A DNA stretch of 64,000 bases from a bacterium (GTDB taxonomy: Bacteria; Actinomycetota; Coriobacteriia; Coriobacteriales; Eggerthellaceae), in NCBI GenBank assembly GCA_963613135.1, contig CAVDXU010000003.1, positions 65,450 to 129,449 of the forward strand, given 5' to 3'. Position numbers and translations under genes: made by a program. Below the pieces are notes generated by a model that worked only from the letters and a program-made list of their open reading frames with translations, did not search any database and was not told the DNA's origin. This document shows, piece by piece, positions 17,621 to 22,347 of the stretch (within the stretch, counting starts at the first letter, position 1; every line of letters starts with the position of its first letter).

Positions 17621-18004
17621 CTAGTCGAGATCGAGCTTCTTGATATACGCGCGCCACTTCTCAAACGATTCATCGCTGATGGCATGCTCCATCAGGCACG
17701 CCTCGTTTTCGGCAACATCCTCGGGAATTCCGAGCTCCTTGTTCAGGAACGTCAACAGCAAGCGATGACGATCATAGATGGCCGTAGCGTATTCGTATCC
17801 TTCTTCGGTAAGCGTGACATCGCCGTAGTACGGCTGCTCCGCAAGCTTCTTCTCTTTCAATGCCGTCACGGCTTTATTAACCGAAGCCTTTGAAACGCCC
17901 ATTTTGTTCGCTATATCAACCGAGCGGACGGAATCGGTGGTGGTGCCTCCGAGCATGACGATGGCCTCAAGGTAATCCTCATGAGATTTGGACATCTTCT
18001 CCAT
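17621..18004 (-). CDS. DtxR/MntR family metal-dependent transcriptional regulator
   Basis: SHEDYLEAI, HTH DIANKMGVSKASV, HRLL..FL, EACLMEH; short form with no C-terminal SH3/FeoA domain; SD AAAGGAG. Confidence 0.93.
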   Translation of the reverse strand: MEKMSKSHEDYLEAIVMLGGTTTDSVRSVDIANKMGVSKASVNKAVTALKEKKLAEQPYYGDVTLTEEGYEYATAIYDRHRLLLTFLNKELGIPEDVAENEACLMEHAISDESFEKWRAYIKKLDLD

Positions 18005-18083
18005 CAGGCTCTCCTTTCGTCTTTCAGCCCATACTACCACATTGAATTCGGGCAAACGGGCAATCGCGACCCATGTTCAAATT

Positions 18084-18251
18084 AACAGGAAGAGCGGCGT
18101 GGGAGAGGAGCTCGCGAGGGCGGAGAGGGGGGATTGCCCTCGCGAGCGTTGCTGTGCGGTGATAGCCAGACGAGAAGAGCTTCACCGCCGGGTCAGCAAA
18201 AGAAGGTTCGTCGGGCGGCGAAGAAAGAGGAGGATTCCGCGCACCTGACAT
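18084..18251 (-). ncRNA. Candidate metal-regulated small RNA (or structured leader) with three C/U-rich stem-loops
   Basis: Own promoter TTGACG-17-TATACT; hairpins 18210-18249, 18149-18199, 18110-18147 with pyrimidine loops; ends approximate. Confidence 0.6.
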
Positions 18252-18253
18252 TT

Positions 18254-18285
18254 GTTAGTATAGGATAACTATAGTAACCCGTCAA
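18254..18285 (-). promoter_or_regulatory. Sigma70-type promoter overlapped by DtxR-type operator
   Basis: -35 TTGACG (18280-18285), 17-nt spacer, -10 TATACT (18257-18262); palindrome GTTAGTATAG-GATAA-CTATAGTAAC (18254-18278). Confidence 0.8.
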
Positions 18286-18359
18286 TAACTTTGCGAAAAA
18301 GTTTTCCTTGGATAAGAAACATGGGGCGATCCGAGGCGGGCTGCTTGCGCACCCCCCGC

Positions 18360-18584
18360 TTAACGCTTGGGATTCGCGGCCTTGTTCATATCGGCGACCA
18401 TGTTTGCCGCCGCGCCGCACCCGGAGCATCCGGCGCAACCGCCGGCGCAACCGCCGCGGGGATCATCGGAGTGGCAATCGCACATGCCGTTTCGCCATAG
18501 GCGTCGAATGGCCCATGCGGCCCACGCAACGATAAGCAGCAGCACGACCACGGTCGGCAGGTTGAATTCCATTCCCAAAATCAT
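18360..18584 (-). CDS. FeoB-associated Cys-rich membrane protein
   Basis: 74 aa, TM then CDC..GCAGGCAGCSGC; directly downstream of feoB. Confidence 0.88.
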   Translation of the reverse strand: MILGMEFNLPTVVVLLLIVAWAAWAIRRLWRNGMCDCHSDDPRGGCAGGCAGCSGCGAAANMVADMNKAANPKR

Positions 18585-18654
18585 GCGCCGGCCATCCTTT
18601 CTGTGAACGCGCGGCAGGCGGCACGTTAACCAAAGATTACTTATATCGTACCCT

Positions 18655-18698
18655 AAAACGAAAGGGGACGCCACGTGAAAGTGATGTCCCCTTTCGTT
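18655..18698 (-). terminator. Intrinsic terminator downstream of feoB
   Basis: CGAAAGGGGAC..GTCCCCTTTCG stem followed by TTTT on minus strand. Confidence 0.7.
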
Positions 18699-18763: not shown

Positions 18764-21358
18764 CTACTTCGCCTGATCGTCCTTGGGCTTGGGAGCCGGA
18801 CGGAAGATCTGGAAGAGCATGGCTGCTGCGATGACGACGGCCAGGATGGTGAACGGACCGAACTCAACCTCGCCGATGGCAAGACCGTAGAACTGGTAGA
18901 TCATCGTGCCGACACACCAGGCGAAGGCGCACATGTAGCCGATGGTGATCCAGAACCACTTCGCAGAGTTCTGCTGCTGGCGAATGGTGCCCATCGCGGC
19001 AAAGCACGGGGCGCACAGCAGGTTGAACGCGCAGAAGGAAACGATGGCTGCGGTGTTGCCCTCGAACATCTGGGCAAAGCCGTACCACAGCTGGGCATCG
19101 CCCTCGCCGTAGCTGGAGAGCTGGGTGATGATGCCGACGGTGGCCACGACGTTCTCCTTGGCAACCAGGCCGGTGACGGTCGTTGCGGCCGCCTGCCAGT
19201 TATCGAAGCCCAGCGGTGCGAAGATCCAGGACAGCGCCGTGCCCAAGCCGGCCATCAGGCTGTAGTCGATGTAGCCCTCGACCTCGGTATCGAGCAAGCC
19301 GAAGCCATCGCCCATGTCGCCGAAGTTCATGAGGAACCAGATGACGATGGTGGACAGGAAGATGATGGTGCCGGCCTTGATGATGTAACCCTTCACGCGC
19401 TCCCACACGGACTGCAGGATGGAGCGGATGGTGGGCATATGGTACTCGGGCAGCTCCATGACGAACGGGGTTGCCTCGCCGGCGAACAGCTTCGTCTTCT
19501 TCAGCATGATGCCGGACAGGATGATGGCGATGACGCCCAGGAAGTAGAACAGCGGGGCGACGTACCAGGTGGCATCGGAGTTGGCGCCGGCGACGGCACC
19601 GAACACGAGCGCGATGATCGGCATCTTCGCGCCGCAAGGGATCATCGTGGTGGTCATGATGGTCATGCGACGATCCATCTCGTTCTCGATGGTCTTGGTG
19701 GCCATGACGGCGGGCACGCCGCAACCGGAGGCCACGAGCATCGGGATGAACGATTTGCCGGACAGGCCGAACTTGCGGAAGATGCGGTCCATGATGAACG
19801 CGACGCGCGACATGTAACCGCACAGCTCCAGGATGCCGAGCAGCAGGAACAGGATGACCATCTGCGGGATGAAGCCGATAACGGCGCCGACGCCGGCAAC
19901 GATGCCGTCATTGACCAGCGACTGCAGCCACGGGGCAACGTTGGCGCTCTCCATGCCGTCAGCGATGATCTTGCCCAAGCCGGGGATCCACAATCCCCAA
20001 GAGCCGTCGGAAGCGTCGGGTTCTTCGACCTCGAGGGCTTTCTTGTAGTCGGAGAAGGTGATGGCGCGTTCTTCGACCTCGCCGTTTTCGCCCTCGTCCT
20101 CAACGGTAGCCACGGCACGCTGAGATTCGGCTTGCTTCTCGAAGTCGGTGACGACTTCCTGAGCCTCTTCGTAAGCTTCGCGCTCCTCCTTGTAGGTTGC
20201 CTTCGCATCCTCGTCGGCATCAGCATCGGGCTTCTCGGGTTCCCCGACCGCTAGAGCATCGATGACCTCCTGCGATTTCTCGCTGGGAAGACCGGTCTCC
20301 TTGTCCTCGCCGAGAAGGTTCGTGACATAGGCCTGGACATCGCTCTGAGCGGCCTCGTATTGCTCGGTCGCCTCGTCGAACGCGGCGCGATTGGTGTAAA
20401 GGAAGCCGTCGCCGGAAATGCCGTCGTTGGCCCAGTCGGTCACCACACCCGTGCCCACGCTGATGGCGAGCCAGTACACGAAGAACATGATGACGATGAA
20501 GATCGGCAGGCCCAGCCAGCGGTTGGTGACCACGCGGTCGATCTTCTGGGAGGTGGTCAGGCCCTGGCGGTTGCGCTTAACCGTCTCGTCGACGACGTGG
20601 CTGATGGCGTCGTAGCGCTCGGCGGTGATGATGGATTCCGCATCGTCATCGAGCTGGTTCTCCAAATCCTCGCGAACGGCCGCGATGGCCTTGAGGTCGG
20701 CATCGGAAAGCTTCAGGTCGCCCTTGGTCTTCTCCTCGTCCTCGAACAGCTTGATGGCGTACCAGCGGGCAGAGGCCTGCGGGACCTTCGAGCCGAGCAC
20801 GTCGGCGATCTTCGAGAGGCCGTCCTCGACGGCGGCGTCGAATTGCAGCTGCGTGGCGGGAGCCTGCTTGGCCTTCGCGAGCTCGATGGCCTTGGCGACC
20901 ACATCGGACATGCCGCGGCCCTTGAGCGCAGAGGTGGGGATGATCGGGCAGCCGAGGCGTTCGGACAGGCCATCGACGTCGATCTTGTCGCCGTTGCGCT
21001 CGACGAGGTCCATCATGTTCAGCGCGATGACGACCGGTACGCCCAGGTTCAGGATCTGGCTGGTCAGATACAAGTTGCGCTCGAGGTTGGTAGCGTCGAT
21101 CAGGTTGATGACGGCGTCAGGGCCGCCGTCAAGCAGGTAATCGCGCGCGCAGATTTCCTCGGGGGAATACGGGGAAAGCGAGTAGATGCCCGGAAGGTCC
21201 GTGATGGTCACGTCCTTGTCGCGGGTGTACTTGCCCTCCTTCTTTTCAACGGTAACGCCCGGCCAGTTGCCAACGTATTGGTTGGCACCGGTCAGCTCGT
21301 TGAACATCGTTGTCTTGCCGCAATTCGGGTTGCCGGCAAGAGCAATGCAAATGCCCAT
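18764..21358 (-). CDS. feoB: Ferrous iron transport protein B
   Basis: GNPNCGKTT, VGNWPGVTVE, DLPGIYSL, NMMD G-domain; GCGVPA, PFVMELP, PCFAA membrane motifs. Confidence 0.97.
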   Translation of the reverse strand: MGICIALAGNPNCGKTTMFNELTGANQYVGNWPGVTVEKKEGKYTRDKDVTITDLPGIYSLSPYSPEEICARDYLLDGGPDAVINLIDATNLERNLYLTSQILNLGVPVVIALNMMDLVERNGDKIDVDGLSERLGCPIIPTSALKGRGMSDVVAKAIELAKAKQAPATQLQFDAAVEDGLSKIADVLGSKVPQASARWYAIKLFEDEEKTKGDLKLSDADLKAIAAVREDLENQLDDDAESIITAERYDAISHVVDETVKRNRQGLTTSQKIDRVVTNRWLGLPIFIVIMFFVYWLAISVGTGVVTDWANDGISGDGFLYTNRAAFDEATEQYEAAQSDVQAYVTNLLGEDKETGLPSEKSQEVIDALAVGEPEKPDADADEDAKATYKEEREAYEEAQEVVTDFEKQAESQRAVATVEDEGENGEVEERAITFSDYKKALEVEEPDASDGSWGLWIPGLGKIIADGMESANVAPWLQSLVNDGIVAGVGAVIGFIPQMVILFLLLGILELCGYMSRVAFIMDRIFRKFGLSGKSFIPMLVASGCGVPAVMATKTIENEMDRRMTIMTTTMIPCGAKMPIIALVFGAVAGANSDATWYVAPLFYFLGVIAIILSGIMLKKTKLFAGEATPFVMELPEYHMPTIRSILQSVWERVKGYIIKAGTIIFLSTIVIWFLMNFGDMGDGFGLLDTEVEGYIDYSLMAGLGTALSWIFAPLGFDNWQAAATTVTGLVAKENVVATVGIITQLSSYGEGDAQLWYGFAQMFEGNTAAIVSFCAFNLLCAPCFAAMGTIRQQQNSAKWFWITIGYMCAFAWCVGTMIYQFYGLAIGEVEFGPFTILAVVIAAAMLFQIFRPAPKPKDDQAK

Positions 21359-21533
21359 GTTCGACCTTTCATTGAATCGTTCGGCACTTCGGGGATCCCT
21401 TGACTCCGATCCGGGAAATATCGTTTGTTACCCCAGGTGAAGTGCTCATTCGAGTTAGAAATTGGTAACTCGACCTCGAAAAAAACGGCGCCTTGGCGCC
21501 TAATCCTCGTGAACTGATACGCGCGGGCGCACG

Positions 21534-21770
21534 TTATTCGTTCACGAGGATGCTCTCGGCCTCGCTCTTGCGCAGCGACAGCTCATAGCCGCGAACCGTG
21601 ACCTCGATGGGGTCGCCCAAAGGCGCGACCTTGCGGACGAACACTTCGGTACCCTTCGTGATGCCCATGTCCATGATGTGGCGCTTAAGGGCACCGCCGC
21701 CCGTCAAACGACGCACCGTGGCGGTTTCGCCGATCTTGACGTCACGAAGCGTTTTCTGATCTTCAGCCAT
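21534..21770 (-). CDS. feoA: Ferrous iron transport protein A
   Basis: MDMGITKG..VRKVAPLGDPIEV.VRGYELSLRKSEA. Confidence 0.95.
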   Translation of the reverse strand: MAEDQKTLRDVKIGETATVRRLTGGGALKRHIMDMGITKGTEVFVRKVAPLGDPIEVTVRGYELSLRKSEAESILVNE

Positions 21771-21883
21771 CAAGCATCCTCCTCTCTCTTCTCCTACGTC
21801 TTCTGCTACCGTTATACTTCATCGGGGACGAGCCCCGATACGAACGGCCTGCGCACAGCGCGGCCGATATCGCCGATAAACGT

Positions 21884-22171
21884 CTAGGCGGTGGTGATGA
21901 TGTGGGATGCGGCAGCGCGGCCGATGGCCACTTGAGCGCCTTTAACCTCGACGATCAAGTCGCCGGCGATGCCGGAAACAACCTTGATGTCGGCGCCCTC
22001 GACGAACCCGAGGTTCTCGAGATGGTGCTGCAAATCCTGCTTTCCGCGAACCTTCACAACCTTGGCCGCCTCGCCCTCCTTCAGAAAAGAAAGGGGCATC
22101 TGCTGAACGGAGACGCCGGACGCCGATGCTGCGGCGGGCGTACCCGCGGTTGCTGCCATTGCGTTACTCAT
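21884..22171 (-). CDS. feoA: FeoA domain protein (first copy)
   Basis: MPLSFL..GE..HHLENLGFVEG..LIVEVKG..VAI. Confidence 0.9.
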   Translation of the reverse strand: MSNAMAATAGTPAAASASGVSVQQMPLSFLKEGEAAKVVKVRGKQDLQHHLENLGFVEGADIKVVSGIAGDLIVEVKGAQVAIGRAAASHIITTA

Positions 22172-22303: not shown

Positions 22304-22347
22304 GTTAGCCTCGTTCAACGAACCGATATTAGCGTAGGCAAACCTTT
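22304..22347 (-). promoter_or_regulatory. DtxR/IdeR-type operator(s) at feo promoter
   Basis: TTAGCGTAGGCAAACCTTT (22329-22347) matches TTAGGTTAGGCTAACCTAA at 14/19; second half-site GTTAG-N7-CAAC at 22304-22319. Confidence 0.7.

Follow-up and report, generated by a model that had tools for sequence, protein, structure and literature searches.

In a stretch of 64 kb from an Eggerthellaceae genome (contig CAVDXU010000003.1), referred to below as the window, an element located between feoB and the gene of a DtxR-family metalloregulator was analyzed. It is very probable that this element is genuine, with a conserved RNA structure and a dedicated promoter. On balance, it is read as a metal-repressed, trans-acting small RNA (sRNA) gene of about 150 nucleotides (nt), which has a sigma-70-type promoter of its own and shares an operator-like box with the feo genes. 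In this form, the sRNA is a new family of a known kind, namely the metal-repressed sRNAs with C-rich seeds. All features of the locus lie on the minus strand, and the coordinates given are positions in the window. The predicted sRNA (about 140–160 nt; 18095–18251) was delimited by its fold and by a covariance-model match of 111.1 bits at 18096–18204. From the position of the −10 hexamer, we infer a start near 18251.

Promoter and Predicted Fold of the sRNA

The promoter described in the initial annotation was found at 18285–18257. It consists of the −35 hexamer TTGACG (18285–18280), a 17-nt spacer and the −10 hexamer TATACT (18262–18257), with 10 of the 12 consensus positions matched. The −35 hexamer is invariant in 22 aligned sequences of the genus, and the −10 hexamer was identified by the promoter scan as well as by the genus alignment. 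Three promoter-like sites were detected between 17400 and 18800, compared to 0.6 ± 0.8 in shuffled sequences. The 10-5-10 palindrome that had been claimed to cover the spacer and the −10 region is present with one mismatch, its arms GTTACTATAG (18278–18269) and CTATACTAAC (18263–18254) being complementary in 9 of 10 positions around the central TTATC. The candidate operator conserved across genera, however, is not this palindrome but the motif GTTA-N8-TAAC at 18269–18254.

The minimum-free-energy fold of 18005–18251 reproduced the three hairpins, their loops and the tail at the coordinates annotated before. Hairpin 1 (18210–18249) has the loop AUCCUCCUCUUUC, which contains CCUCC and varies between species, and hairpin 2 (18149–18199) has the loop CUUCUCGUCU with the near-invariant UCUCGUCUG. 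In hairpin 3 (18110–18147), a stem of 12 base pairs (bp) carries the loop AAUCCCCCCUCUCC (CCCCCCUCUCC), and the single-stranded tail CUCCUCUCCC follows at 18100–18109. The fold has a z-score of −3.2, and none of 200 shuffled sequences was equally stable. The loops are single-stranded in the minimum-free-energy fold and in the consensus fold.

Conservation and Distribution of the RNA Family

By BLAST, the region was matched in 21 of 22 genomes of the same genus and in four other genera of the Eggerthellaceae, and no match to it was obtained in 24 genomes from the other families of the order. The alignment of 22 orthologous regions revealed a nearly invariant promoter and box. Within the transcribed part, hairpins 2 and 3 vary by compensatory substitutions while their loops are fixed, whereas hairpin 1 differs in sequence and length and only its C-richness recurs. 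The three-hairpin RNA of the initial annotation is thus conserved in its second and third hairpin. In an unfitted MAFFT alignment of 26 sequences, RNAalifold predicted 22 pairs, 13 of which show double changes.

A covariance model comprising hairpins 2 and 3 only was used to search for further copies. It matched 77 of 151 sampled Eggerthellaceae genomes, belonging to 33 of 64 genera, with one to three copies per genome; among the high-quality genomes of the family, 61 of 110 were positive. In a class-wide sample, 14 of 24 Eggerthellaceae genomes were positive. Of the 126 genomes not belonging to the family, 4 gave matches, all of them weak with E-values of 9e-4 or weaker. All 22 model pairs contain compensatory double changes (81 matches, 78 distinct sequences). 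In the alignment of the 78 distinct sequences, which was fitted to the covariance model and therefore leans towards structure, 96.8% of the paired cells are paired compared to 32–52% with the partners slid, and the observed covariation was attained by none of 500 shuffles; the unfitted MAFFT alignment shows the same pattern. Over the 81 aligned copies, the loop-2 core UCUCGUCUG is retained in at least 97% and the C-run of loop 3 is near-invariant. Covariation and the conservation of hairpins and loops, named as checks in the initial annotation, came out in favor of hairpins 2 and 3; hairpin 1 is not conserved in sequence. G-U pairs were found on the minus strand only, which fits the minus strand being the transcribed one.

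The comparison with Rfam, which had also been proposed, was carried out with release 15 (4227 models), and the element, scanned in place and alone, matched no family. The best scores (at most 19.6 bits) were obtained with unrelated models that have gathering scores of at least 35. With the model of the 6C RNA (RF01066), the locus remained unmatched even under lax filter settings, and the own genome (88% complete) contained no match at E ≤ 1. In open-access full text on the Eggerthellaceae, Eggerthella lenta and the Coriobacteriia, no description of such a regulatory RNA was found.

Operator-Like Motif at the sRNA and feo Promoters

A TTGnnn −35 element and, in proper spacing, a GTTA-N8-TAAC motif embedding the −10 hexamer were found in 72 of 80 copies of the family. 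From 34 distinct boxes of sRNA promoters, a position weight matrix (PWM) was built. In the own genome, the two own sRNA promoters are the top matches with scores of 30.5 and 22.0, out of 65 matches above 9 bits in 2.4 Mb; the higher score belongs to the box over the sRNA −10 hexamer in the window (18254–18272). The PWM was also applied to 13 loci with feo and the sRNA (the own locus and 12 loci of relatives, covering at least seven genera), 11 of which contain a complete feoA-feoA-feoB. The box is located about 100–250 nt upstream of feoA1, the first feoA copy, in 9 of these 11 loci and in the spacer between the second copy (feoA2) and feoB in 9 of 11 as well. For L232 and L239, no PWM match was found at feoA1 or in the feoA2-feoB spacer. 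Since about 0.16 PWM matches per 6 kb are expected by chance, an operator-like motif is common to the sRNA and feo.

In the window, the box 5′ of feoA1 (22325–22347; PWM score 9.2) overlaps a match to the DtxR/IdeR consensus, and the box in the feoA2-feoB spacer (21454–21472; CGAGTTA-N8-TAACTCG; PWM score 10.6–10.7) consists of two perfectly inverted 7-bp arms that are separated by 8 bp. Going beyond the initial annotation, the operator-like motif over the sRNA −10 hexamer is found at the promoters of feoA and feoB as well, across genera. Judged from the sequences, the sRNA is likely to be co-regulated with feo via this shared box.

When the classical DtxR/IdeR consensus was searched in the own genome, the best sites had four mismatches and the search was not discriminating. 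The site upstream of feoA and both sRNA promoter sites are among 83 sites with at most five mismatches. The next PWM matches in the genome lie before a DUF454 gene, nrfA with a histidine kinase gene, a subtilase gene, trpE and a Crp-family gene. They are treated as unexplained or due to chance. Moderate box-like palindromes were observed between the GAF histidine-kinase gene and nrfA (cytochrome c552) and upstream of the DUF454 gene (G000:C5:57689 and C5:62331).

The genes of the locus are arranged in the order feoA, second feoA, feoB, an open reading frame (ORF) with a Cys-rich domain, the sRNA element, dtxA, a DivIC-domain gene and a Ppx/GppA gene. The first feoA copy (21884–22171) was identified by Pfam (FeoA, 2.3e-16) and the second (21534–21773) by its tblastn orthologs, which are 77–92% identical and present in 10 of 10 loci of relatives containing that region. 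The feoB gene (18764–21358) matches the Pfam families FeoB_N (8.1e-67), Gate, FeoB_C and FeoB_Cyto. The ORF at 18360–18674 has a match to the FeoB-associated Cys-rich membrane protein domain (PF12669, 0.0015, residues 41–86) that is under the curated cut-off, and the real start of its protein is probably internal to the ORF.

The Adjoining Regulator and Further Copies of the sRNA

The dtxA gene (17621–18004) codes for DtxA, a two-domain DtxR-family metalloregulator of 127 amino acids (aa) with the N-terminal winged helix (Fe_dep_repress, PF01325, 2e-08) and the metal-binding dimerisation domain (Fe_dep_repr_C, PF02742, 7.2e-18). Relatives with 84–89% identity are found in Senegalimassilia and farther ones in Gordonibacter, Ellagibacter, Adlercreutzia, Enterorhabdus and genomes labeled 'Eggerthellaceae'. 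The closest relatives with a solved structure are 5zr4, 8pvt and the E. coli MntR 2h09. At the position occupied by Glu in the aligned MntR-like chains, the EAC..EH motif of DtxA has a Cys. Because the regulator gene adjoins the sRNA, its product would be the protein that binds the box, and the sRNA is probably repressed by it. The tie to feo favors Fe2+ as the metal.

As proposed in the initial annotation, dtxA has an extended −10 of its own. It reads TGTGGTAGTAT, is located downstream of hairpin 3 at 18041–18031, and its TGTGGTA is present in 21 of 22 aligned genus sequences, the own one included. TGnTAnnAT-like words are present in other genera. In one member of the genus (L008, G004:C12), the spacer between sRNA and regulator gene contains a duplicated CTCCTTCCTCTTCTT..GGTTAGCGCC segment, and TGTGGTA is absent.

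Copies of the element that stand apart from a regulator gene were found as well. No DtxR-family gene is located within 1.5 kb in 6 of the 25 family loci with the element, and 6 of 10 further copies from multi-copy genomes have no dtx gene nearby. In L050 and L060, the sRNA follows feoB and is itself succeeded by an additional GC hairpin, which has a U-tract, and by a convergent yqeY. The sRNA likewise lies after feoB in L063/L233, and in L053 the convergent yqeY is present with a different gene upstream. At the sequence level, the stand-alone copies possess their own promoter and terminator.

A paralogous copy, termed B copy, occurs in many relatives as well as in the own genome, 35–45 nt before dtxB, a second DtxR-family gene, which is followed by a Usp gene. 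The own B copy (G000:C44:9190-9850; locus L031:1890-2550) precedes a dtxB with a product of 141 aa (PF01325 4.9e-13, PF02742 9.9e-12). The B copy has a box-bearing promoter and a clean U-tract terminator, and in front of dtxB lies a G-rich ribosome-binding region (GGGGGG...GGAGGGGGG) with complementarity to the C-rich loops. Its RNA looks like a terminated leader, read-through of which would yield the mRNA of the regulator and would probably be the sole route to transcription of the regulator gene.

A second conserved motif, approximately GTGRAGRAAWTGTAWRC followed by a GGYTAAC-like word, was observed about 30–60 nt 5′ of the −35 hexamer in A and B promoters of many genera (loci L024–L030, L050–L065 and L157–L160). 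The own genus has a AAACTTTTT..AAAAAGTT palindrome at this place instead (18290–18330). This upstream motif could be the site of a second regulator or an UP-like element.

Predicted Targets of the Loops

The loops were scanned for duplexes with 1707 initiation regions (60-nt windows) of the own genome, which were derived from crude gene calls. At −18 kcal/mol, loop 1 forms 34 duplexes in initiation windows and none in gene-internal windows, and for loop 3 the respective numbers are 199 and 45. The excess in initiation windows fits an anti-Shine-Dalgarno action like that shown for IsrR (PMC9410917).

Of the 1707 gene calls, 45 carry a CxxCxxCxxxC motif, and six of these proteins are among the top 40 partners of loop 2. 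Shuffled seeds gave 1.42 on average and 5 at most, so that none of the 60 reached this count. Iron-sulfur (Fe-S) proteins or proteins with a twin-arginine translocation (Tat) signal account for eight of these top 40 (shuffled mean 1.88; eight reached by none of 60). This enrichment is tempered by the small numbers, the crude gene calls, non-independent paralogs and the use of several tests and thresholds. Partners hand-picked from the lists of all loops, and thus not a random sample, were checked with Pfam. Confirmed in this way were three molybdopterin oxidoreductases containing Fe4S4 domains, an aldo-keto reductase containing a 4Fe-4S domain, two further 4Fe-4S proteins, a TerC protein and a Fur-family protein. 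A NifH-type protein (Pfam), the gene of which adjoins that of one of these two 4Fe-4S proteins, is among the partners of loop 3. Candidate targets are a 4Fe-4S gene at G000:C17:34912 and a molybdopterin oxidoreductase gene at C35:7447.

In the gene of the Fur-family protein (G000:C19:5930-6395; locus L163/L171), 13 bp over the ribosome-binding site (RBS) match loop 2. As a conserved target it was rejected: the top-ranked site is strain-specific and was found in none of 29 homologs (37–60% identical, not close orthologs), which counts among the points against the preferred reading. The promoters of its closest homologs contain TGATAAT-type palindromes, and these suggest an autoregulated Fur-like protein in the same bacterial family.

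Two initiation regions of the metal genes themselves are to be regarded as leads only. That of dtxB ranks 6th of 1707 for loop 3, and that of feoA2 (21774–21800) ranks first of 1707 for the species-specific loop 1 with −24.9 kcal/mol. For an RNA made during iron starvation, feoA2 would be a surprising target, and its rank may simply reflect a very purine-rich RBS. Altogether, we lean towards an sRNA that acts in trans through its loops. That it would spare iron by silencing the mRNAs of Fe-S proteins is put forward tentatively.

Assessment of the Reading and Its Alternatives

Several further results weigh against a metal-repressed sRNA that acts by pairing. The box fits the classical DtxR/IdeR consensus only moderately, and its genome-wide matches beyond the sRNA promoters and feo indicate no evident metal genes. 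In NCBIfam, DtxA scores 86.8 with the MntR model PRK11050 (cut-off 153) and 30.8 with the DtxR model (cut-off 290) and reaches no equivalog cut-off for DtxR or MntR. In the window copy, hairpin 3 is followed by CUCCUCUCCC and not by a U-tract, so that the RNA may continue towards the regulator gene. Counted over the 10 nt that follow the stem, 26 of the 81 copies have at least six T, 31 have four or five and 24 have at most three; a C/U-rich word is found in 38 of the 81 tails. The RNA of the B copies is leader-like, as it lies 35–45 nt ahead of the regulator start with no obvious room for a promoter. Concerning the C-rich anti-Shine-Dalgarno loops proposed in the initial annotation, the loops are indeed single-stranded and C/U-rich, and loops 2 and 3 are conserved, but these two loops give no more strong duplexes with initiation regions than composition-matched shuffled seeds. 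Finally, for a 4Fe-4S ferredoxin-type gene, the site was retained in only 8 of 21 loci, all of them from a single subclade of the genus, and was weaker in the others.

As an alternative, the element could be a leader or an attenuator that acts in cis on the DtxR-family gene, in which case the box promoter drives the regulator, hairpin 3 stops most transcripts, the C/U-rich stretches mask the regulator RBS in the read-through RNA and the short RNA is a by-product. The element is located directly 5′ of dtxA on the same strand in 43 of 80 dtxA loci, and it is carried by the dtxA loci of the cultivable Senegalimassilia anaerobia and Gordonibacter pamelaeae (L085 and L088). In the fold of the window its CUCUCC tail pairs with GGAGAG of the dtxA RBS. 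The succession of U-tract terminator, short spacer, G-rich RBS and regulator start in the B copies points in the same direction, as does the rank of the dtxB initiation region among the loop-3 partners. Nevertheless, such a leader is considered rather unlikely, since 36 of the 80 dtxA loci have no sRNA upstream, the stand-alone copies have an extra terminator and a convergent gene or no dtx gene near, and the conserved extended −10 of dtxA lies downstream of the element. Moreover, loops that are invariant over 33 genera exceed the needs of a terminator or a masking stem. The regulator 5′ untranslated region that the initial annotation had offered as an alternative is thus weakened in its pure form by the stand-alone copies, while the B copies remain leader-like. 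A riboswitch was rejected because the stand-alone copies are not followed by a gene that it could control. The other alternative offered, a leaderless gene for a 75-aa protein (18024–18251), could draw on the fact that its frame opens at an ATG (18251) coinciding with the predicted transcription start. The same ATG is readable in 23 of 26 related loci, but the frames there range from 9 to 104 aa with differing registers and sequences, 14 of the 23 end within 20 codons and 75 aa are attained in the window copy only. The ORF has no Pfam match and the conservation is one of base pairs, not of codons; with its frame not conserved, the ORF was rejected as a gene, and we regard a protein-coding role as extremely improbable.

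With the architecture unchanged, the signal could be manganese or another metal, DtxA being an MntR-type sensor and the RNA part of the manganese response. The NCBIfam MntR models (86.8 and 56.8 bits, compared to 30.8 for DtxR), the MntR proteins among the best solved relatives and an N-terminal EDYLE stretch that resembles the MntR ligand positions (judged from the alignment with the solved relatives) speak for manganese, and a TerC-family gene is among the loop-2 partners. Against it stand the cut-offs that no model attains, the Cys in EAC..EH in place of the Glu of MntR-like chains, the box at the feoA and feoB promoters and the position of the sRNA next to feoB even where dtxA is missing, and we consider a manganese signal rather unlikely. 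It is still less probable that the RNA works via a protein, for which hairpin 2, being invariant, would form a binding or sequestering site together with its internal loop ACCCGG. The conservation of the hairpin 2 loop and the internal loop goes beyond what pairing with varied targets needs, and the result with the shuffled seeds would agree with such a site. However, the gene neighborhood suggests no partner protein, C/U-rich single-stranded loops are a hallmark of the pairing sRNAs of Gram-positive bacteria (PMC9410917), and there is the modest enrichment of Fe-S proteins among the predicted partners.

Proposed Mechanism

In the mechanism proposed for the metal-repressed sRNA, the neighboring DtxR-family metalloregulator would repress the sRNA when metal, probably Fe2+, is plentiful, and metal limitation would induce it. 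The near-invariant C/U-rich loops would then pair in trans with purine-rich ribosome-binding regions of mRNAs, and the silenced targets may be the mRNAs of Fe-S proteins. Transcripts that continue into the regulator gene would supplement this response with autoregulation.

A more far-reaching and rather speculative version is an sRNA-repressor cassette, in which a duplicated, family-wide sRNA is arranged head-to-tail with the gene of its own metalloregulator in a mixed transcriptional and post-transcriptional feedback loop. In such a cassette, metal starvation would derepress a single promoter, the anti-Shine-Dalgarno-like RNA produced would stop the synthesis of Fe-S and molybdo-enzymes, and read-through together with the pairing of the C-rich loops with the G-rich regulator RBS would adjust how much of the repressor itself is made.

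Comparison With Known Systems

Members of the Eggerthellaceae such as Eggerthella, Gordonibacter, Adlercreutzia and Senegalimassilia metabolize drugs and polyphenols by means of many Fe-S and molybdopterin reductases. For these gut Actinomycetota, the sRNA family and its candidate operator are testable handles on the rationing of metal among the reductases.

FsrA is an iron-sparing sRNA of Bacillus. A functional analogue of FsrA and IsrR had been proposed in the initial annotation, and the structured sRNA gene with its own promoter, the operator-like box and the C/U-rich loops are in line with this, while the concept as such is already known from MrsI. IsrR of Staphylococcus targets Fe-S and molybdo-enzymes and its anti-Shine-Dalgarno action has been shown (PMC9410917). 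The likeness to both RNAs consists of the C-rich regions and a promoter box, which here is a putative operator and in their case a Fur box. FsrA and IsrR are Fur-controlled RNAs of Firmicutes, whereas here the neighbor is a DtxR-family gene and the box resembles none of theirs. A relation in sequence or in Rfam does not exist, and the RNA described here occurs in one to three paralogous copies, usually in tandem 5′ of the regulator gene.

The proteobacterial RyhB and PrrF (named in PMC6016810) are comparable in their logic, as an sRNA that lowers the synthesis of iron-using proteins is under the same repressor as iron uptake. They depend on Fur and Hfq, and the RNA described here is unrelated to them in sequence and structure. 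The 6C RNA (RF01066) is likewise actinobacterial and has loops of at least six C, to which the CCCCCCUCUCC of loop 3 is similar. In contrast to 6C, the element does not match the 6C model and its loop 2 is not C6; for 6C, a SigA/SigB promoter is reported in an abstract that mentions no metal box (PMC5014011).

Within the phylum, the closest analogue is MrsI (ncRv11846), in which a site for IdeR, a DtxR-family protein, is located near the start of an independent iron-sparing sRNA with its seed in an apical loop (PMC6016810). MrsI has a seed of 6 nt within a loop of 7 nt, and its conservation is reported for Mycobacteriaceae and Nocardiaceae (PMC6016810). Because an iron-sparing sRNA under IdeR control is thus known in the phylum (PMC6016810), the concept is not new, but the family is. 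The RNA described here resembles it in its putative site of the DtxR-family type and its predicted loop seed. Measured against the published description of MrsI, the family described here is set apart by C/U-rich loops of 10–14 nt and by having been found, in the genomes searched, only in the Eggerthellaceae. The tandem arrangement of sRNA and regulator gene, the paralogous copies and the leader-like B form are its unusual traits. It would be the second sRNA in the phylum linked to a DtxR-family regulator, after MrsI.

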